This document shows, piece by piece, positions 3,928 to 57,597 of a DNA stretch of 64,000 nucleotides; position 1 is the stretch's first letter, and each line of letters starts with the position of its first letter. The stretch covers positions 565,625 through 629,624 of the forward strand of contig JADJGV010000034.1 in assembly GCA_016707895.1 (NCBI GenBank), read 5' to 3'. The translations under genes were made by a program, and so were the position numbers. Under the pieces are notes generated by a model. That model ran no database searches. It was not told the origin of the DNA and saw only the letters and a program-made list of their open reading frames with translations. The DNA comes from Myxococcales bacterium (GTDB taxonomy: Bacteria > Myxococcota_A > Polyangia > Haliangiales > Haliangiaceae).

Positions 3928-5114
3928 CAGCCCGCCTCGTCGCGCAGCCGCTCGGCGAGCGCGAGCCACCCCGGGAGGTCGCCGGCGTGGCCGCACCGGG
4001 CGACGAAGGCTTGATCGATCGGCGGCGGCGCGCCGGGCGGCGCGTGGACGACGACGCCGGCGACGTGGACCGCCAGCGCCAGCGCGGTGTCGTCGTGGCC
4101 GATCCGGCCCGGCTGGCGGTGGCAGCCGACCGCTTCGACCAGCGCGTCGGGCAGGCCCCACACGCCGAGCGCGTAGGCGGCCACGTGGTCGGGGTCGATC
4201 GCCCCGTCGACGGCGCCGGCGTCCAGCAGGATCAGCGTGCCCAGCTCGAGCATCAGGCCGGCGGTGAACGCGGCGTCGGCCAGCGGCGGCGGGGCCAGCC
4301 GTCGCGCCACCATCGCGGCCACCAGCGAGCGGCGCTCGACCTCCTCGAGCGCGCGCCGCGACACGTGGGCGCGGGTGCGCGCGTACAGGTGCACCGCGAG
4401 CGCCAGGCCGCGCACGATCTCGGTGCCGAGGTAGGGCAGGGCGGTGGTCACGTCCTGGGTCGGTCGCCCGACCGCGAAGAAGGCCGAGTTGGCGAGTTGC
4501 AGCACGCGCGCCGACAGCCCGGCGTCGCGCTCGACGATCGCGGTCAGCTCGGCGAGGCTGGTGCGCGCCTGGCCCAGCAGCCGGGCCAGCTCCCAGTAGG
4601 TGCGCGGCACCGACAGCAGGTGGCGCACCTGGCCGACCACCTCGCGCACCCGCGGATCATCGACCATCGCCCGGGTGGTCTGGACCCGGGCCAGCGTGGT
4701 GCGCAGGCGCTCGGTCTCGCACGGCTTGGCCAGGAACTGGTGCGCCACCAGCAGCTCGTCGTCGTAGGTGCCGCTGCCGCCGTTGCCGCTCAAGAGCACC
4801 CGGGTCATCGCCGGGTACGCCTCGCGCACCCGCCCCAGGAGCGTCAGGCCGTCCATCCCCGGCATCCGCAGGTCCGAGACGATCGCGTCGAACGGGGTCT
4901 CGGCCATCACCGCGAGCGCCTCGTCGCCGCCGCCGGCGAACGCCATCGTCCAGTGGTCGGCGTGCCGGCGCAGGCTCCGGCGCAAGCCGTCGAGGATCCG
5001 CGGCTCGTCGTCGACGAAGAGGATGCGCAAGCGGTCCACGTGGTCTGGTTCGGCCGATCGCCGGGCCGCTTGAGGCCCGCGCCGATCGCGGGCCGCGCCC
5101 GGTCCGTGGCACAC
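3927..5114 (-). CDS. response regulator, receiver + HDOD domain
   Basis: Receiver motifs (ILFVDDEP...DAIVSDLRMPGMDG...LSG) followed by an HDOD-like C-terminal domain. The start is GTG at 5114 or GTG at 5039. Confidence 0.8.
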   Translation of the reverse strand: MCHGPGAARDRRGPQAARRSAEPDHVDRLRILFVDDEPRILDGLRRSLRRHADHWTMAFAGGGDEALAVMAETPFDAIVSDLRMPGMDGLTLLGRVREAYPAMTRVLLSGNGGSGTYDDELLVAHQFLAKPCETERLRTTLARVQTTRAMVDDPRVREVVGQVRHLLSVPRTYWELARLLGQARTSLAELTAIVERDAGLSARVLQLANSAFFAVGRPTQDVTTALPYLGTEIVRGLALAVHLYARTRAHVSRRALEEVERRSLVAAMVARRLAPPPLADAAFTAGLMLELGTLILLDAGAVDGAIDPDHVAAYALGVWGLPDALVEAVGCHRQPGRIGHDDTALALAVHVAGVVVHAPPGAPPPIDQAFVARCGHAGDLPGWLALAERLRDEAG

Positions 5115-5122
5115 TGGTCGCG

Positions 5123-5476
5123 ATGATCCGCCTCGCGTCGCTCCTCACCGTCCTCACCCTGACCGCCTGCGGGGGCAAGGCCGCGGCTCCCGCGACGCCC
5201 GCGCCCGCCGGCGGCCCCACCGGCACGCTCAAGGAGCTGCAGAACGGCGACCGCGCCTGCTACGTGGTGGTCGAGGTCGACGGCGCCGACCAGTCGATCG
5301 AGGGCGACTTCGAGCTGTGCCCGGGCGCCAGCCAGGACGCCAGCGGCCTCATCGGCCAGCGCGTGACCTGGACCACCAAGAAGGCCAACGTCCAGGCGGC
5401 GTCGTGCCAGGGCGACCCCGACTGCGCCGACTCTGACGAAGTCGATCTGATCGTCACGATCACCGCCGCGCCGTAG
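5123..5476 (+). CDS. lipoprotein
   Basis: Signal peptide with an LTAC lipobox, and a compact Cys-containing domain. Confidence 0.55.
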   Translation: MIRLASLLTVLTLTACGGKAAAPATPAPAGGPTGTLKELQNGDRACYVVVEVDGADQSIEGDFELCPGASQDASGLIGQRVTWTTKKANVQAASCQGDPDCADSDEVDLIVTITAAP

Positions 5477-15845: not shown

Positions 15846-16259
15846 TCACTCGTCGTCGGCGTCGAGCTCGTCGACCTCGTCGGTCACCGCCGCGGCGTGC
15901 GGGAACAGCGGCCCGCGCGCCTCGCGGTTCACCAGGCCCAGGCCCGCGCAGCCGCGCGCGGCCGCCGGATCCGGCGCGCCGCTCACGCAGGTCCTCGCCA
16001 GCGGCCCCAGCCCCGGCCGCTGGCACAGATCGATCACCTCCACCGCGAACCGCAGCACCTCGCCCTGCTGCGCCGCCGGCGCGCCCGCCACCCACCGCTC
16101 CGCCGCCCGCGCCACCGCCCGACACCCGTTGTCCTTCGCCGGCGCCGCCGCCCGCCCCCCGCACCCCGCGAGCAGCACGGCGATCGCGATGCCTCGTCGA
16201 ACGGCCACGAACCTGATCCGGCGTTGACGCAACGAATCTCGCTCGAACCTCGCGCGCAT
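15846..16259 (-). CDS. lipoprotein (Cys-rich)
   Basis: LLAGC lipobox and an acidic C-terminal tail. Confidence 0.45.
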   Translation of the reverse strand: MRARFERDSLRQRRIRFVAVRRGIAIAVLLAGCGGRAAAPAKDNGCRAVARAAERWVAGAPAAQQGEVLRFAVEVIDLCQRPGLGPLARTCVSGAPDPAAARGCAGLGLVNREARGPLFPHAAAVTDEVDELDADDE

Positions 16260-24998: not shown

Positions 24999-27029
24999 TC
25001 AGGGCGTGCCGGCGCCGTTGGCCCAGTCGGGCGTCGGGCCGGTGCTGCCGCTGCCGGGCGACGCGGTGCCCGATCCCGAGCCGGTCGGCGGCTTGGCCGA
25101 GCCCGATCCGGAACCCGATCCCGAGCCGGTCGGCGGCTTGGCCGAGCCCGATCCGGAACCCGATCCCGAGCCGGTCGGCGGCTTGGCCGAGCCCGAACCC
25201 GAGGCGGATCCGGAACCAGAGCCGGAGTCGGAACCGGATCCGGAGCCGCCGGCGGCGGAGCCGGAACCGGAACCGGAGCCAGCGGCGGAGCCGGAGTCGG
25301 ACCCTGATCCCGAGCCGGCACCGGCGTCGGAGCCCGAGCCGCTGCCGGTCGCGCTGCCGCTGCCGGTGCCCGTCTTGGCGAGATCCATCGTGGCGTCGGT
25401 GGTCGCGGCGAGTTGATCGCCCTCGGCGGCGAACTGGTCCGGCTTGATGACCGTGCTCCACGGCTGGTAGCCGCGCTTGCGCAGGTAGACCCGCACGCCG
25501 CCGGCCTTGGCCGCCTGGGCCTTGGTCAGCGTCACGTCGGCCGGCGTCACCTTGCCGGTCTCGGCACCGTCGACCGCGATCGTCGCGCCGGCCGGCGTCG
25601 ACGTCACGTGGATCATCCGCGGCAGCCCCTCGAGCTTCGCGGTCGCGGTCTTGTCGCCGCCGTTGACCTTGAGCTCGGCGTCCTGGAAGCCCGGGGCGCT
25701 CACCTTGATCGTGAACGGCTTGCCGACCTCGAGGTCGACGGTGAACGGCGCCGGCCCACTGGCGCCGGTCTCGACGACGGTCACGGTGGCCCCAGCGACG
25801 GCGGCCTTGACCACCAGCGGCGCGGTGACCGCCGGGGCGGCGGCCGCGTCGATCGCGACCTCGGCGGTGACGGCAGCGTCGGGGGCCAACGGGGCCATCG
25901 CGTCGATCGCGGCGACCGCGACCTGGGTGCCGGTGGCGGTGCCCGAGGCGGTCGGCGGCGTCGGCGCCTCGTTCTTCTTCTCGGCCTTGCCGCGCAGCAC
26001 GAAGAACCACACGGCGGCGGCCACCAGCGCGGCCGCGAGCAGGCCGATGATCACGGCCGAGGCGCCCTTGCTGGACGTCCCGGGGATCGCGGTCGGCTCG
26101 GCGGGCGCGGCCGTCGCGGTGGCGGCGGGGCGGGCGGCGGCGGTCTTGGCGGCGGCCGCGGTCTTGGCGGCGGCGATCGCCGGCTCATCGACGAGGCGCG
26201 GGGCCGGGCTCGGCGCGGGGGCCGGCGCTGGCGTGGGCGCGGGCGGCGCCTCGGGCACCGGCACCGCGCGCACCACCGGCGCGGTGGTGTCCGCCGGCGA
26301 CGGCTCCGCCGGCGGGGGCGGGGTGGGCGCGGCGAGCTTCTTCTCCGACGCGCGCGCGGCCTTGGCCTCGGCGCGGGCCTCGGCGGCCGCCTCGCCGGCG
26401 GCGGTGGCGGCGACCAGGTCGTCGAGCGCGCGCACCTTGGTCGCTTCCTCGAAGGTCTCCTCGGGGAACTCGTCGGCGTCGCTGTGGAACGGCATCGGCC
26501 GCGGCAGCGGCGTGGTGTCGGTGCGCTCGTCGGCGAACCCCGACTTCGACGGCGCCATCTGGCCCAGCTTGGGCTTGGCGACCTCGGCGGCCGCGGCGGC
26601 CAGGGGAGACGGCGCGACCCGCGTCGGCGCGTCCATGAAGTTCTTGTTGGGCGGCGGCTCGGTGTTGCCCGACGACGTCGATGGCTGCTTGGCCTTCTCG
26701 GCGAGGATGCGATCGAGGATCGGCTGGCTGCCGTCGCCCAGCCGGTCGAAGCGCACGCCCATGCCGGGCGCGGCGTTGGGGCGGGCCGGATCGTTCTCGC
26801 GGGTCCAGACGACGGTGCCGTCGCCGGTGATCAGCGGCGTCGCGTCGCGGAGCTGGAACTCGAACCGCATCTGGGTGCCGACGGCCAGCGGCTCCTTGGT
26901 CCGGATGAAGATGCCGCCGGGGCTCACGTCGGCGGCGTAGCGCTCGATGAACTGATCCAGGGTCGCGCTCTTGAACTTGATCTTGAGCGTGACCGGCGCG
27001 CGCTTGGCTTGACGGGTGTTGGGATCCAC
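24999..27029 (-). CDS. PilZ-domain membrane protein with two PEGA domains and Gly/Ser-rich C-terminal repeats
   Basis: N-terminal PilZ-like domain, an Ala/Pro-rich region, a TM helix, two PEGA-like beta domains and a ([13 protein letters not shown])x3 tail. Confidence 0.8.
25071..25205. repeat. about 2.7 copies of a 45-bp tandem repeat inside the PilZ-PEGA gene (encodes [13 protein letters not shown] repeats)
   Basis: Unit GATCCCGAGCCGGTCGGCGGCTTGGCCGAGCCCGATCCGGAACCC repeated head-to-tail. Confidence 0.7.
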
Positions 27030-36901: not shown

Positions 36902-36917
36902 AGCAACATCGGTGCCA
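36902..36917 (-). promoter_or_regulatory. sigma-54-type -24/-12 promoter-like motif TGGCACCGATGTTGCT (minus strand)
   Basis: Reverse complement of 36902-36917 reads TGGCAC-N5-TTGCT, which matches the consensus TGGCACG-N4-TTGCW. Confidence 0.35.
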
Positions 36918-37054
36918 CAAGCCGTCGCCGGGGGTAGACATCATCCGATGGCTTGGGTAGAGTCGTGACGAGTTGGGCTAATGCCAACTTCGGGCCAGCG
37001 TGAAGGGCGGCCCGTGCCTCATTCCAACGTTACGGAATTAAAGGAGGATCGCCG

Positions 37055-38574
37055 ATGGGCATGGAGATGCGCCAAGAGCTGCGACTGAGTCAGCAGCTCG
37101 TCATGACGCCTCAGCTCCAGCAGGCGATCAAGCTGCTTCAGCTGTCCCGCATGGAGCTCGTGGACATGGTCCACGAGGAGATGCTCGAGAACCCGATCCT
37201 CGAAGACGACTTCGAGGTCTCAGCCGAGCAGGGCAAGGAGCGAGAGCTCCTGGGCGGCGACGACCAGCTCGCGATGCAGATGGAGCGAGCCGGCAACACC
37301 GAGCTACCCCCGCTCGAGCAGACGCCGGTCGAGAACGCCAACCAGGTCGAGGTCAAGGCCGACGGCACCGCGGTCAACGAGATCGACTGGGAGAACTACC
37401 TCGACAACTACTCGAGCGCCTCGCCGATGCCGTCGTACCGCGGCGACAGCGAGGACCTGCCGTCGCTCGAGGCCACGCTCACCCGGCCGCCGTCGCTCCA
37501 CGACCACCTGGCCTGGCAGCTCAAGCTGTCGGACCTCGAGGATCGCGAGAAGGAGCTGGGGCTCATCATCATCGGCAACATCGACGCCGATGGCTACTTC
37601 AAGGAGCCGACGGTCAGCGAGCTGGCCGCCGACGAGGGTGTCAGCGAGGAGCTGGTCGAGAAGGTGCTGGAGAAGATCCAGACCTTCGATCCGGTCGGCA
37701 TCGGCGCGCGCAACCTCGCCGAGTGCATGCTGATCCAGGCCATCGCGTGCGGCCAGGACGACGACCTCGTCGTCAAGATGATCAAGAGCCACCTCAACAA
37801 CCTGGTGAAGAAGAACTACGCGGCGATCGTGCGCGATCTGAAGAAGCCGCCGCCGGCGCCGCAGATGGACATCGAGGAGATCTACGAGGCGGCCAAGGTC
37901 ATCATGGAGTTCGACCCGCGCCCGGGTCGGCAGTACGCCTCCGACGATCCGCACTACATCACCCCCGACGTCTACATCCACAAGGTCGGCGACAAGTTCT
38001 TCGTCGTGCCCAACGACGACGGCCTGCCCAAGCTGAAGATCGCCAACTTCTACAAGGCGGCGATGGGCTCGGGGGAGAAGTCCAAGGAGTACGTCCAGGA
38101 CAAGATGCGGTCGGCGCAGTGGCTGATCCGCTCGATCCAGCAGCGCCAGCGCACGATCATCAAGGTCGCCGAGTCGATCCTGAAGTTCCAGCGCGAGTTC
38201 TTCGACAAGGGCATCGCCCACCTGAAGCCGCTGATCCTGCGCTCGACATCGCCGAGGACATCGGCATGCACGAGTCGACGGTGTCGCGCGTGACGACCAA
38301 CAAGTACGTCCACACGCCGCAGGGCATCTACGAGCTGAAGTTCTTCTTCAACTCGGGCATCTCGTCGTCGTCGGGCGACGACCTCGCCTCGCAGGCGGTC
38401 AAGTCCAAGATCAAGGAGCTGGTCGACGCCGAGGACGCCAAGCGCCCGCACAGCGACCAGAAGATCGTCGAGCTGCTCAAGAAGGGCGGCATCAACATCG
38501 CCCGCCGCACCGTCGCCAAGTACCGCGAGCAGATGGGCATCCTGTCGTCGAGCCAGCGCAAGCAGGTGTTCTGA
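37055..38574 (+). CDS. rpoN: RNA polymerase sigma-54 factor RpoN, interrupted by an apparent frameshift near 38240
   Basis: AAGGAGG RBS 7 nt upstream of ATG 37055. Glutamine-rich region I, core-binding region, and the RpoN box ARRTVAKYRE. The HTH/RpoN-box part (DIAEDIGMHESTVSRV...) lies in a different frame (track ORFs 37055..38293 and 37723..38574). Confidence 0.85.
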
Positions 38575-38640: not shown

Positions 38641-39519
38641 TCAGAAGCCGGAGAAGGCGCGGAGGCGGGCGGCGTCGGGGGTGGTGCGGCCGGCGGCGTC
38701 GCGCAGCACGAGCTCGTCGGTGGCGAGCGGCGCGGCGGCGTGGGCCAGGGTCCAGACGGCGAACAGCGGCGGCTTGGGGGCGTGGGCCACGATCGCGGTG
38801 CGGGCGACGACGTGCAGGCCGACCTCGGCGGCGGCGGCCTGCAGCCGGCCCTCGGTGCGCGCGTCGCCGCACAAGACCAGCGCGCCGCCGGGCGCCAGCG
38901 CCGCCGCGCCGGCCACGACGTAGGCGTCGATGCCGCCGCGGTACTCGATGCGCGCGTAGGCCCGCTGCTCGTCCTGGGCGTCGACCGCGGCGTCCGGGGG
39001 GAAGTACGGCGGCGTGCCGGTGACCAGATCGAACAGGCCGACCCGCAGCTCGCGCAGATCGCCGTGGTGGATCGCGACCCGCGCGCCGAGCTGGTTGCGC
39101 CGGACGTTCTCGGTCAGGAGCGCGAACGACACCGCCTGGGCCTCGATGCCGACCAGCGTCGCCGCCGGCAGGCTCCACGCCAGGTGCAGCAGCACCGAGC
39201 CGATGCCGCAGCCGAGGTCGAGGATCCGCCGCGCGTCGGGCGCGCGCCGGCACGCCACGTACGCGGTGGCCATGTCGTCGCTCGAGAACCGGTGGCCGCG
39301 GGCGCGCTGGACGATCGTCAGGTCGCGGGTGAGCCGGTCCTCGGTCAGCGGGCCCCAGCGCGGGTCGAGCATGCGCGCGTGTACCAGATCGCGGCGCGCC
39401 GTGGCGCGGCCGGCGGCGAGATCGTAGCTCCGGCGCGCGCGTGAGGGAAGGGCGGCGGGAGGCAACCGTCGGGCGGCGCGCGTGGCGTCGAAGAGTCGAC
39501 GAAGAACGTGTTGTCGCAC
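38641..39519 (-). CDS. N6-adenine-type methyltransferase, YfiC/TrmN6-like
   Basis: Rossmann motif ILDLGCGIG and an NPPY-like TPPYF motif. The start may be the internal ATG 39372. Confidence 0.75.
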   Translation of the reverse strand: MRQHVLRRLFDATRAARRLPPAALPSRARRSYDLAAGRATARRDLVHARMLDPRWGPLTEDRLTRDLTIVQRARGHRFSSDDMATAYVACRRAPDARRILDLGCGIGSVLLHLAWSLPAATLVGIEAQAVSFALLTENVRRNQLGARVAIHHGDLRELRVGLFDLVTGTPPYFPPDAAVDAQDEQRAYARIEYRGGIDAYVVAGAAALAPGGALVLCGDARTEGRLQAAAAEVGLHVVARTAIVAHAPKPPLFAVWTLAHAAAPLATDELVLRDAAGRTTPDAARLRAFSGF

Positions 39520-41695: not shown

Positions 41696-42536
41696 ATGCA
41701 GATCGTCGTCGTCACCGGGCTGTCGGGGGCGGGCAAGTCCAGCGCGCTGCGCGCGGCTCGAGGACATCGAGTATTACTGCGTCGACAACCTGCCGCTGCC
41801 GTTCATGACCGAGCTGGTCGAGGCGCTGGCCCGCGACGGCCAGGCCGACAAGCTGGCGGTGGCGATCGACTCGCGGCAGCGCCGCTACCTGCCGACGTGG
41901 GGCGCCGAGCTGGCCAAGCTGCGCGGCGCCGGCCACCGCCTCGAGGTGATGTTCCTCGACGCCAAGGACGACGTGCTCTTGCGCCGGTTCTCCGAGACCC
42001 GGCGCCGCCACCCGCTGTCGGGCGACGAGGTGTCCGAGGGCATCCGCCGCGATCGCGAGCTGCTCGCCGAGCTGCGGATCGGCGCCGCGGTGGTCGACAC
42101 GTCGAACCTGACGACCCACCAGTTCAAGGCGATCATCCAGGACCGCTACGGCGGCACCGGCAAGCTGGCGGTGACGCTGGTGTCGTTCGGGTGGAAGCAC
42201 GGCGCGCCGGTCGAGTTCAACCTGGTGTTCGACGTCCGGTTCCTGCCCAACCCGTACTTCGAGCCGACCTTGACCCACAAGGACGGCCGCGACCCCGACG
42301 TCGCGCGGTTCGTGTGCGCCTCGGCCGACGGCCTCGAGCTGGTCGAGCGGGTCGAGAGCCTGCTGCGGTTCTCGCTGCCGCAGTTCCAGCAAGAGGGCAA
42401 GCTGTACGTGACCGTGGCGGTGGGCTGCACGGGTGGCCGGCATCGCTCGGTCGCCATCGTCGAAGAGCTGCGCCGGCGGCTCGGCGGCGACTGGGACATC
42501 CTGGTCCGGCATCGCGACGTTGATCGAGGGGAGTGA
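41696..42536 (+). CDS. rapZ: RNase adaptor / nucleotide-binding protein RapZ, with an apparent +1 frameshift near 41752
   Basis: N-terminal MQIVVVTGLSGAGKSSALRA (Walker A) in one frame. The continuation LEDIEYYCVDNLPLPF... runs to the C-terminus in the next frame (ORFs 41696.. and 41805..42536). Confidence 0.8.
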
Positions 42537-44626: not shown

Positions 44627-44782
44627 GCGGCCGGGCCGGCGCCGGCTGCGGCGGGTCTTGTGGTTCTCGCCAGGCATGTGAACGGGTGGCGACTCACCGG
44701 CCCGGCGGCGTGGGGCGGGCGCGCGTGCTCGCGTGGTTAGGCGAGGGTGGACGCGGCACGTGGCTTGCTCTTCGATGGCGCG

Positions 44783-46076
44783 ATGCGCGCTTCGATCTCC
44801 CCGGTCCTCCCCGCGGTCCTGTGCTCGGTGCTGGCGCTCGCGTGCGGCGGGACGGAGGGGGACGACGACCGCCGGGCCGGGGCGGTGGCCTTGCCCGGGG
44901 TCGCGATCGACCACGTCGTGATCGACTCGACGGGCGCCGCGATCGTGGGGGGCCGGTTCGGCGGCACGATCGATCTGGGCGATGGGCCGCCGATCACGGC
45001 GGTCGCGCAGGTCGATGGCTTCACGGCCAAGGTGACGCCGGCGGGCGAGGTCCTGTGGTGGCGGCGTCCAGGTCAACGACGTCGGTCGCGACGATCAGGT
45101 CACCGGCCTCGCTGTCATGCCCGACGATTCGGTGATCGTGACCGGCTACGTCGAGGGTGTGGTCGACCTCGGCGGCGGACCGCTGGGCGGCGACGACGAC
45201 GGTGCGCCGGACCCCGGCATGCTGTTCGTCGCGCGCTACGCGGCGGACGGCACCCACCTGTGGTCGAAGCGCTGGCGCAGCGTGAACGGCAGCTCGTCGG
45301 CCGAGCTGCCGGTGGTGTCCGACGACGGCTCGATCTATCTGATCGGGCACTTCAACGGCGGCGCGACGATCGCGCCGGTCGCGCTCACGTTCGGGCTGGA
45401 GAAGGTGCTCGTGAAGGTGTCGGCGGATGGCGCGGTGCAGTGGGCGCGCCCGGTGCGTGACCCGGCCTCCGACGGCGAGCCCCGGTACAACGTGTCGGGG
45501 CTCGCGGCGCACGGCGACGACGTCTTGCTGAGCGGCTGGGTGGACGGCGGCACCGACCTCGGCGCGGGCCCGGTCGCCGACACGGTCGCGACGTACGCGA
45601 TGGTGCGCGACGCGGCCGACGGCGCGATCGCCGCCGTGCACCCGTACACCCCGGTCGAGACCGCCAGCGGCGATCGGCCGATGGCGGTCGCGCCCGACGG
45701 CCGCGTCATCCTCGGCGGCGCGCACCTCACCTGGCTCGCGCCGGATCTGACCGTCGCCCGGTCGATCGATCTGTCGGACCTGAGCGCCGCCGGTCTCCGC
45801 GCGGGTCAGGTCGCGGTCGCGTCGAACGGCGACGTGGCGTGGGCGTCGACCGTCGCCCACGTCCGCTACTCGTCCGCGGGCGTCGAGCTGGCGCGCGAGG
45901 ATCAGACGCCGGTCGACCCGCGCGACGCGCCGCTGCGCATCGGCGACGTCGCCGTGGGCCCCGACGATCGCGTCGTGCTGGCCGGCGCCTTCGCGGCCAC
46001 GATCGCGCTCGGCGGCCGCCGGCTCGACCTGCCGACCGGCGCGACCGGCGCGGGCTTCGTGATCTGGACCGAGTGA
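44783..46076 (+). CDS. lipoprotein with beta-propeller-like repeats, apparent frameshift near 45066
   Basis: LALAC lipobox. Repeated D-G-x-x-x-W motifs span two track ORFs (44747..45460 and 45117..46076) in adjacent frames. Confidence 0.5.
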
Positions 46077-55713: not shown

Positions 55714-57045
55714 GTGCGCTACGTTCGCCCCGTGGCCAGACGCAACGCCAGCATCCCCGACGCGAGCGCGGTCAACGCGCAGTGGCTCATCCAGTTGCGC
55801 TGGGCGCAGATCGTCGGCCAGGCGGCGACGGTGCTGGGCGCCGACGTGCTGCTCGGCGTCGACCTGCCGCTGTACCTGCTGTGGGCGGTGGTGGCGGTGG
55901 GGCTGGGCTCGAACCTCGCGCTCGCGGCCTCGGTGCGGCGGCGCGGGCGCGCCGACGGCCGGGTGCTGGCGGCGGTGATGGCGCTCGACATCGCGGCGCT
56001 GACCGGGCTCCTGTACCTGACCGGCGGCGCCGACAACCCGTTCGGCTTCCTGTACCTGGTGCAGATCGCGCTGGCGACGGTGATCCTCGAGGCGGCGTGG
56101 ACCTGGGCGCTGGTGGCGCTGTCGTTCCTGGGTTTCGGCCTCCTGCTCCTGCTCGACCACCGGCCGCTGACGGTGTCGCCGCACACCCGCGCGATCGGCG
56201 TGTGGGTCGCGCTCGGCGTCGCCTCGGCGTTCATCGTCCACTTCCTGTTGCGCGTGACCCACGCGCTGGCGGCGCGCGACGCCGAGCTGGCCGAGGCCCA
56301 CAACCTGGCCGCGCGGCAGGAGCGCCTGGCGTCCCTGGCGACGATGGCCGCCGGCGCGGCCCACGAGCTGGCCACGCCGCTGGGCACGGTGGCGCTGGTG
56401 GCCAAGGAGCTCGAGCGCCACCTCGCCGGCCACGAGGACCGGACGCTGGCCGAGGACGCGCGGCTGATCCGCGAGCAGGTCGGGCGCTGCCGGGCCATCC
56501 TCGATCAGATGGCCGGCGGCACCGGCGCGGCCGGCGAGGGCCTGGTGTCGCAGCCGGTGGCCGAGGTGCTCGCCGAGGCGATGACGATCGTCCGCCCCGA
56601 GCCGTCGATCCGCACCAGCGTCACCCCCGAGGTCGCGGCGACGGTGGTCAACCTGCCGGTGCGGGCGGTGACCCAGGCGCTGCGGTCGCTGATCACCAAC
56701 GCCCAGGACGCGTCGCCGGCCGGCAGCGAGGTGCTGGTGTCGGCCACCTGCCGCGCCGGGGTGCTGGCGATCGACGTCGTCGACCGCGGCCGCGGCATGA
56801 GCGCCGAGGTGCTGGCCCGGATCGGCGAGCCGTTCTACACCACGAAGCAGCCCGGCCGCGGCATGGGCCTGGGCCTGTTCCTGGCCCGGGCGGTGTTCGA
56901 GAGCATCGGCGGGGCGATGGCGATCGACTCGCGCGAGGGGGCGGGGACCCGGGTCACCGTGACCATGCCGACCGACGCCGCGGCCCGGGCCCAACGCGGC
57001 CGCGGCACGCCGCGAGCCACGAACGCCCCGGCCGGTGGTATCTAA
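55714..57045 (+). CDS. regB: RegB/PrrB-type redox-sensing histidine kinase
   Basis: Six TM helices, the H-box AAGAAHELATPLGT, HATPase N and G boxes, and the adjacent RegA-type regulator. Confidence 0.8.
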   Translation: MRYVRPVARRNASIPDASAVNAQWLIQLRWAQIVGQAATVLGADVLLGVDLPLYLLWAVVAVGLGSNLALAASVRRRGRADGRVLAAVMALDIAALTGLLYLTGGADNPFGFLYLVQIALATVILEAAWTWALVALSFLGFGLLLLLDHRPLTVSPHTRAIGVWVALGVASAFIVHFLLRVTHALAARDAELAEAHNLAARQERLASLATMAAGAAHELATPLGTVALVAKELERHLAGHEDRTLAEDARLIREQVGRCRAILDQMAGGTGAAGEGLVSQPVAEVLAEAMTIVRPEPSIRTSVTPEVAATVVNLPVRAVTQALRSLITNAQDASPAGSEVLVSATCRAGVLAIDVVDRGRGMSAEVLARIGEPFYTTKQPGRGMGLGLFLARAVFESIGGAMAIDSREGAGTRVTVTMPTDAAARAQRGRGTPRATNAPAGGI

Positions 57046-57051
57046 GGGGCG

Positions 57052-57597
57052 ATGTCCGAGACCAAGCCCTCCCTGCTCCTGTGCGACGACGACGAGGTCT
57101 TCCGCACCCGCACCGCCCGCGCCTTCACCGAGCGCGGCTTCGAGGTGTCGACGGCCCACGACTTCGACAGCGCGGTCGCGGTGGCGCGCGGCGAGTCGCC
57201 CGAGCTCGCGGTGGTCGACCTCAAGATGCCCGGCAAGGGTGGCCTCGAGCTGGTCAAGGCGCTGCTCGAGATCGATCCCCACACCAAGATCGTCGTCCTG
57301 ACCGGCTACGGCTCGATCGCGACCGCGGTCGACGCGGTCCGGCTGGGCGCGACCTACTACCTGGCCAAGCCGGCCGACGCCGACGAGATCCTCGCCGCGT
57401 TCGCCCGCGGCCAGGCGCCGCCGCTCGAGCCGCCCGACTCCGACTACCGCGCGCCGAGCCTGGCCCGCGCCGAGTGGGAGCACATCAACCGCGTGCTGTC
57501 GGACTGCGGCGGCAACATCTCCGAGGCGGCGCGCCGGCTCGGCATCCACCGCCGGTCGCTGCAGCGCAAGCTGCAGAAGTACCCGCCGAATCGTTGA
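57052..57597 (+). CDS. regA: RegA/PrrA/ActR-type response regulator (Fis-type HTH)
   Basis: Receiver (LLLCDDDE...DLKMPGKGG...TGYGS) plus a C-terminal Fis-like HTH (GNISEAARRLGIHRRSLQRKL). Confidence 0.9.
   Translation: MSETKPSLLLCDDDEVFRTRTARAFTERGFEVSTAHDFDSAVAVARGESPELAVVDLKMPGKGGLELVKALLEIDPHTKIVVLTGYGSIATAVDAVRLGATYYLAKPADADEILAAFARGQAPPLEPPDSDYRAPSLARAEWEHINRVLSDCGGNISEAARRLGIHRRSLQRKLQKYPPNR

Follow-up and report, generated by a model that had tools for sequence, protein, structure and literature searches.

The locus described here lies in a 64,000-nt stretch of DNA (the window; G+C 74%) from an uncultured member of the Kofleriaceae (Myxococcota) from activated sludge. The 80 related loci with which we compare it all come from MAGs labelled Kofleriaceae, Haliangiales, Myxococcales or similar, and activated sludge is the source of several of the closest contigs. 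At its centre, the gene order is pyrG, an acyl-CoA-dehydrogenase-like gene, rpoN, a methyltransferase gene on the minus strand, hpf, ptsN, hprK, rapZ, ptsH and ptsI, in which rpoN-hpf-ptsN-hprK-rapZ-ptsH-ptsI is the usual cluster. Parts of this arrangement vary between strains: the related locus L008 lacks the methyltransferase gene (38641..39519, minus strand) that lies between rpoN and hpf, and in both L008 and L095 the segment at 44.6-46.1 kb is missing or replaced.

Within the cluster, the plus-strand rpoN ORF (37055..38574) reads normally over 396 codons and then loses its frame, so that the gene for sigma-54 falls into the following parts:

37055..38242, plus strand: rpoN codons 1-396, covering the activator-interacting Region I, Region II, the core-binding domain and the start of the DNA-binding domain up to ...KPLILR (Pfam; 96-99.9% nucleotide identity to intact 505-aa rpoN genes)
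38243..38244, plus strand: frame-shifting insertion of two bases, TC (or, equivalently, CT at 38242-38243) (the sole gap in the rpoN DNA alignment with the relatives L001-L007)
38243..38293, plus strand: out-of-frame tail STSPRTSACTSRRCRA, then a stop (translation)
38245..38574, plus strand: rpoN codons 397-505 and stop codon in the -1 frame, with the HTH (DIAEDIGMHESTVSRVTT) and the RpoN box, ARRTVAKYR (Pfam, GC3, synonymous substitutions)

The N-terminus is typical of sigma-54 and starts MGMEMRQELRLSQQLVMTPQLQQAIKLLQLS. The frame of 37055 then runs up to ...FFDKGIAHLKPLILR, with R396 encoded at 38240-38242; past this residue it yields 16 unrelated amino acids before the stop codon at 38291-38293, and the product as written is 412 aa long. 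The conserved continuation lies in the adjacent frame (ORF 37723..38574), where it opens DIAEDIGMHESTVSRVTTNKYVHTPQGIYELKFFF and reads ...ALDIAEDIGMHESTVSRVTTNKYVHTPQGIYELKFFF...ARRTVAKYRE...QVF, with the RpoN box at the 3' end. Pfam divides the protein in the same way. In the 412-aa product, the Region I domain Sigma54_AID (PF00309; residues 6-50, E 3.1e-17) and the core-binding domain Sigma54_CBD (PF04963; residues 138-333, model positions 2-185, that is, in full, E 8.7e-55) are followed by positions 2-57 only, out of 160, of Sigma54_DBD; positions 54-160 of this model are matched in the shifted (-1) frame (E 5.5e-45). A complete DNA-binding domain (PF04552, HTH plus RpoN box) comes to lie in a single frame with the rest of the protein only after two nucleotides are removed. 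The third-position G+C content (GC3) changes frame at the same point, from 0.96 in the first frame before the break to 0.99 in the shifted frame after it. The break is a deterministic feature of the sequence, not a statistical one. It falls at the first residues of the HTH, around A368/D369 of the Klebsiella/E. coli sigma-54, and what is kept comprises Region I, Region II, the core-binding domain and the long helix, without the HTH and the RpoN domain. An earlier, sequence-only reading of this DNA had placed the break near 38225-38250, had recognised the continuation in ORF 37723..38574 and had noted that the product as written would lose its HTH and RpoN box. The translations, the split Pfam match and the frame switch in GC3 agree with this description at each of its points.

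That reading had allowed for either a 2-nt insertion or a 1-nt deletion, and only the former stands. Aligned with the DNA of relatives, the site reads CTGCG[CT]CGACATC, a 2-nt insertion and the single gap in rpoN. In 119 of 120 homologues, the QxxFF motif and HEST are separated by exactly 21 residues (...LKPLILRD[IV]AEDIGM), which is the spacing obtained when two nucleotides are taken out, and a 1-nt deletion is excluded as the cause. Without the two bases, the repaired sigma-54 is 505 aa long. Its nearest database proteins are likewise 505 aa long and 98% identical to it; sigma-54 proteins from Kofleriaceae and other Myxococcota, with lengths of 493-505 aa, match it in their hundreds. The repaired protein, with its AID, CBD and DBD, also aligns end to end with the solved Klebsiella/E. 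coli structures (PDB 7qxi, 7qv9, 5nwt; E 2e-90), gapless across the site, where LILRDI pairs with MVLADI. Unlike all of these relatives, the gene in the window encodes a 412-aa product and leaves its 3' part out of frame.

How old could such a lesion be? Between the window and its three closest relatives, 16 rpoN codons differ; three of them lie after the break, and all three differences are synonymous in the true frame, in which the 109 downstream codons agree with the relatives. Because the true frame after the break is so pristine (GC3 0.99, 3/3 synonymous), the lesion, judged from the sequence, is either extremely recent or else not biological. An old pseudogene does not fit: no further disabling change follows the break, and the lesion is absent from the other members of the lineage.

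Near-identical contigs were obtained by exact look-ups with the PyrG and PtsN proteins of the window. The comparison with rpoN of close relatives that had been suggested as a check of the break could be run on these contigs, and the site proved intact, reading CTGCGCGACATC, in five independently assembled contigs from NCBI, JGI, Logan and ENA that are 99.6-99.95% identical to the window. They are a Logan contig (ERR1356702, L094; 99.95% identity over 7.7 kb), two JGI contigs (3300009540, L093/L116, and 3300012956, L098; 99.8% each), a contig of GCA_964269055.1 (L091; 99.7%) and an ENA contig (L096; 99.6%). Over its 7.7 kb, L094 differs from the window by just one SNP and the indels in rpoN and rapZ. 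More broadly, the site is intact in 21 of 21 related loci that cover the break, and none carries the insertion. As the nearest proxy for raw reads, these contigs and loci point towards an intact gene, the outcome named beforehand as refuting the break. A 40-mer bearing the insertion finds no exact match in the metagenome collection, against five for the intact 38-mer. Among the 80 species-representative relatives, rpoN is uninterrupted in 79 and occupies a single frame in all 80.

Inactivating changes of another kind were seen in two relatives. The sole interrupted rpoN among the 80 is that of L038 (8417-9913 of DATDCH010000400.1, Kofleriaceae SMAG_U143), in which an in-frame TGA replaces a conserved Trp at codon 350 (SAQ*LIRS, W350*) of a gene that is otherwise full length and in one frame. 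In the near-identical short-read contig L093/L116 (JGI 3300009540, Ga0073899_10004989, positions 4854-5140, corresponding to 42752 of the window), a CAG>TAG change in ptsH shortens HPr from 92 to 71 aa (Q72*). The change has the look of a nonsense variant that arose naturally within the same operon.

The break in rpoN has company, for two more genes downstream carry frameshifts that are private to the window:

41696..42536, plus strand: rapZ, frameshifted by an extra G at 41755, after codon 21, which cuts the Walker A segment (MQIVVVTGLSGAGKSSALRA) off from the rest (translation compared with rapZ of L094)
44765..46076, plus strand: gene whose 440-aa protein has no recorded Pfam hit, frameshifted by 11 nt (TGGCGCACGTA) missing after 45058 (comparators)

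The extra base of rapZ, in the context GCGCGCG[G]CTCGAG, is absent from six near-identical comparators and from 27 of 27 loci that have the site; the intact sequence expected at 41,745-41,765 is GCGCGCGCTCGAG. The 11-nt deletion at 45058 sits between TGGCG direct repeats. The gene that it disrupts is intact in L091, L092 and L093/L116, and the sequence expected at 45,045-45,075 is GTGGTGGCGCACGTATGGCGG.

To put these changes into proportion, we counted private differences over the 31.9 kb of the window that are covered by at least two near-identical comparators. Here the window has three private SNPs and three private indels, and all three indels frameshift genes. In six short-read contigs of the same strain, the private differences amount to 34 SNPs, without a single indel. 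Were indels distributed evenly over all these events, all three would land among the six of the window with a probability of 20/9880 = 0.002. Among assembly-private differences, indels are in excess in the window (3 indels to 3 SNPs vs 0 to 34), at a ratio unlike that of natural variation.

The three lesions are also clustered, occupying 6.8 kb of the roughly 60 kb surveyed (P ~0.035). Against a 98.9% identical relative, no gene between 1.5 and 21.3 kb contains an uncompensated frameshifting indel; the only cluster of small indels in this interval (16190-16227) lies at a gene edge and sums to a multiple of three. No frameshifting indels were found inside genes at 15.8-29.4 kb or at 47-64 kb, no uncompensated frameshift at 27-38 kb in comparison with L008, and no split domains in a Pfam scan of adjacent same-strand ORF pairs. 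GC3 frame plots were too noisy, and too ambiguous with respect to the antisense strand, to serve as a test of assembly quality. A series of minus-strand ORFs at 22.8-27.1 kb, considered as a possible broken gene, turned out to be separate genes for a Crp-like regulator, a CPBP protease and a 676-aa protein. The last of these (24999..27029, minus strand) has a long Gly/Ser-rich repeat tail with a 16-residue unit present three times, and the repeat differs in length from that of L118 by 6 nt, in frame.

Another assembly of the organism gives a view of how such errors look. Compared with both the window and the short-read contigs, GCA_964269055.1 (L091/L105/L118, CAXWNE010000036.1) has many private indels: its pyrG is frameshifted to 388 instead of 540 aa, a phosphodiesterase gene is split into 376 + 111 aa instead of 493, and a messy stretch in L091 matches 38962-38996 of the window. 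This is evidently an indel-error profile like that of the window, only worse, with indels that are sometimes complex. Consensus indel errors therefore do occur in assemblies of this organism.

What, then, is the break? Because near-identical strains are intact at the site and two more private frameshifts lie nearby, it is most likely a sequencing or assembly error. We consider it highly probable that the additional TC at 38243-38244 arose as a consensus (indel) error in this assembly, a technical cause that we infer from the pattern of differences. The locus would then hold an ordinary functional sigma-54 gene, which in the organism would be read straight through into a 505-aa sigma-54, and the error in rpoN would be one of three within 7 kb, together with the additional nucleotide in rapZ and the loss of 11 nt in the next gene but one. 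Pseudogenes created by uncorrected indel errors are documented for nanopore-only MAGs (PMC8103633). Like the indel-induced pseudogenes of metagenome assemblies, especially long-read ones, the lesions of the window are private, several in one region and indel-rich, and they leave the coding signal intact; unlike those of long-read assemblies, they lie outside long homopolymers and are confined to about 7 kb of the 64 kb.

These last features are the ones that speak against an error, and they speak at the same time for a genuine, very recent loss-of-function allele, perhaps together with the frameshifts in rapZ and downstream. The sequence as given does show a break. None of the three indels is of the classic long-homopolymer kind, and the 2-nt insertion in rpoN lies in a non-repetitive context; the TGGCG direct repeats around the 11-nt deletion are typical of genuine slippage during replication. 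Outside these sites, the window is free of private indels, which argues against a generally poor assembly, so errors would have to be locally clustered. Moreover, inactivating variants that appear to be real exist in short-read assemblies of relatives (HPr Q72* in L093, rpoN W350* in L038). We nevertheless think a genuine allele unlikely, and improbable, too, its consequence that the cell would be left with a 412-aa sigma-54 fragment that binds core RNA polymerase yet cannot bind promoter DNA. Only this assembly has the lesion, which is missing from all five contigs of 99.6-99.95% identity, hence from strains that differ by about one SNP per 8 kb; three frameshifts next to three SNPs make an unnatural spectrum when the comparators have 34 SNPs and no indels; there is no downstream decay, and the three genes hit share no common selective reason. 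An organism with a defective sigma-54, which the sequence-only reading had implied, is not what these comparisons support. Besides the uninterrupted rpoN of 79 of 80 relatives, the gene is reported to be essential in Myxococcus xanthus, and in Geobacter sulfurreducens it resisted deletion (PMC2725144).

Natural loss-of-function alleles of rpoN are known, for example in Pseudomonas aeruginosa from chronic infections. The window resembles these alleles in that a truncating mutation removes the DNA-binding part of sigma-54. Unlike them, its lesion has no population support, near-identical strains being intact, relaxed selection leaves no sign, and for a member of the same phylum, M. xanthus, rpoN is reported to be essential. 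That all three frameshifts should be real, so that a strain about 99.95% identical to intact ones had just lost sigma-54, RapZ and the 440-aa protein, strikes us as very unlikely. If it were true, this branch of the Myxococcota could do without sigma-54, and inactivation would recurrently strike the rpoN/PTS-Ntr cluster, a pattern with which HPr Q72* (L093) and rpoN W350* (L038) would fit. A real break would give us a myxobacterial relative that lacks functional sigma-54, and this in a phylum rich in activators of that factor.

An artefact could also have arisen in a more specific way, if co-existing strains were merged into one consensus and indels were left where their variants were joined. 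The region from 38 to 46 kb varies between strains, and other assemblies are chimeric or messy here (L096 at 38081-38180, L091 at 38962-38996); such a strain-variable, messy stretch offers a technical reason for the clustering and would account for three indels so close together. However, the window is otherwise identical to L094, L099 and L100 around each indel, with no second haplotype to be seen there, and we regard a mixed-population consensus as possible but somewhat doubtful. In any case, it would be a sub-case of technical error and not a true alternative to it. Programmed recoding by ribosomal frameshift or bypass, or a sigma-54 made as two polypeptides, would fit the perfect preservation of the downstream frame. 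With GAGGA 7 nt upstream of it, an in-frame ATG at 38266 would in principle even allow translation of a 102-aa C-terminal fragment. Yet CTG CGC TCG ACA does not contain a slippery heptamer X XXY YYZ, and to restore the correct frame without altering conserved residues a +2 hop would be needed exactly here. The insertion is found in 0/21 related loci and 119/120 homologues are continuous, which leaves nothing conserved for a signal. As to a split protein, GAGGA-ATG is plain coding sequence for EDIGM, also present in intact genes, and the fragment from M405 would have neither the first HTH helix nor a connection to the core-binding domain. We reject both as having next to no likelihood.

With a consensus error as the preferred reading, the practical consequence is one of caution. 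The assembly probably contains at least three frameshift errors in 38-45 kb (rpoN, rapZ and 44765..46076), and automatic annotation would wrongly score these three genes as pseudogenes or as missing functions.

Does the window carry traces of a sigma-54 regulon? Enhancer-binding-protein motifs (GAFTGA and related) were not found in any frame of the window, and matches to the -24/-12 consensus with at most two mismatches are at chance level (16 in the window vs 16.4 expected). At 55714..57597 on the plus strand, a PilS-like histidine kinase gene (6TM_PilS, HisKA, HATPase_c) is followed by one for a 181-aa response regulator that combines REC with a Fis-type HTH_8 and is devoid of the sigma-54-activating AAA+ domain. 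This NtrC/PilR-like pair without the sigma-54 module is conserved in all relatives.

The region immediately upstream of rpoN is a different matter, for two promoter-like elements lie side by side:

36902-36917, minus strand: sigma-54-type -24/-12 element TGGCACCGATGTTGCT (exact consensus match)
36935..36963, plus strand: putative sigma-70-type promoter of rpoN, TAGACA / 17-nt spacer / TAGAGT (consensus scan)

The sigma-70-type site is the one match observed where 0.2 would be expected in the consensus scan, and its -35 and -10 boxes are conserved in relatives. The element next to it, 138 nt upstream of the rpoN ATG, is the only exact match to TGGCAC-N5-TTGCW in the window, with 0.02 expected. 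It has counterparts in the related loci, for example at 9847-9862 in L001, 9848-9863 in L008 and 9311-9326 in L010. Of 71 Kofleriaceae/Haliangiales relatives, 67 have it in relaxed form on the minus strand, at a distance of 90-150 nt upstream of rpoN; a single relative carries it on the plus strand, and the background is 0.0014 per 300 nt. The element stands directly upstream of the conserved sigma-70-type promoter, and its distance to the -35 box falls into two classes about one helical turn apart: 49 sequences have a gap of 6-8 nt, and 16 sequences, including the window, one of 16-17 nt, with no -35-like match in 3 of 68. The sequence to the left of the element is not conserved among distant relatives. 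The rpoN leader is not unusual in its fold (z = -1.7), and an Rfam scan of the whole window found no match.

Because the gene upstream of rpoN is mostly co-directional with it (46 of 61), the element is not simply the promoter of a divergent protein gene. We propose that it is a putative binding site at which sigma-54 holoenzyme would compete with the rpoN promoter, resulting in negative autoregulation. Alternatively, antisense transcription that depends on sigma-54 and runs divergently may start from the element at 36902-36917. In Rhizobium leguminosarum, rpoN is known to be negatively autoregulated (PMC3538637), and sigma-54 promoters before rpoN have been reported for several bacterial classes and found not significant for others (PMC12316311). 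In contrast to those promoters, the element of the window has the opposite orientation and would be a variation on the theme. The sigma-54-type site beside the rpoN promoter is more interesting biology than the break itself: conserved and divergent as it is, it may mark autoregulation of rpoN in the Kofleriaceae.
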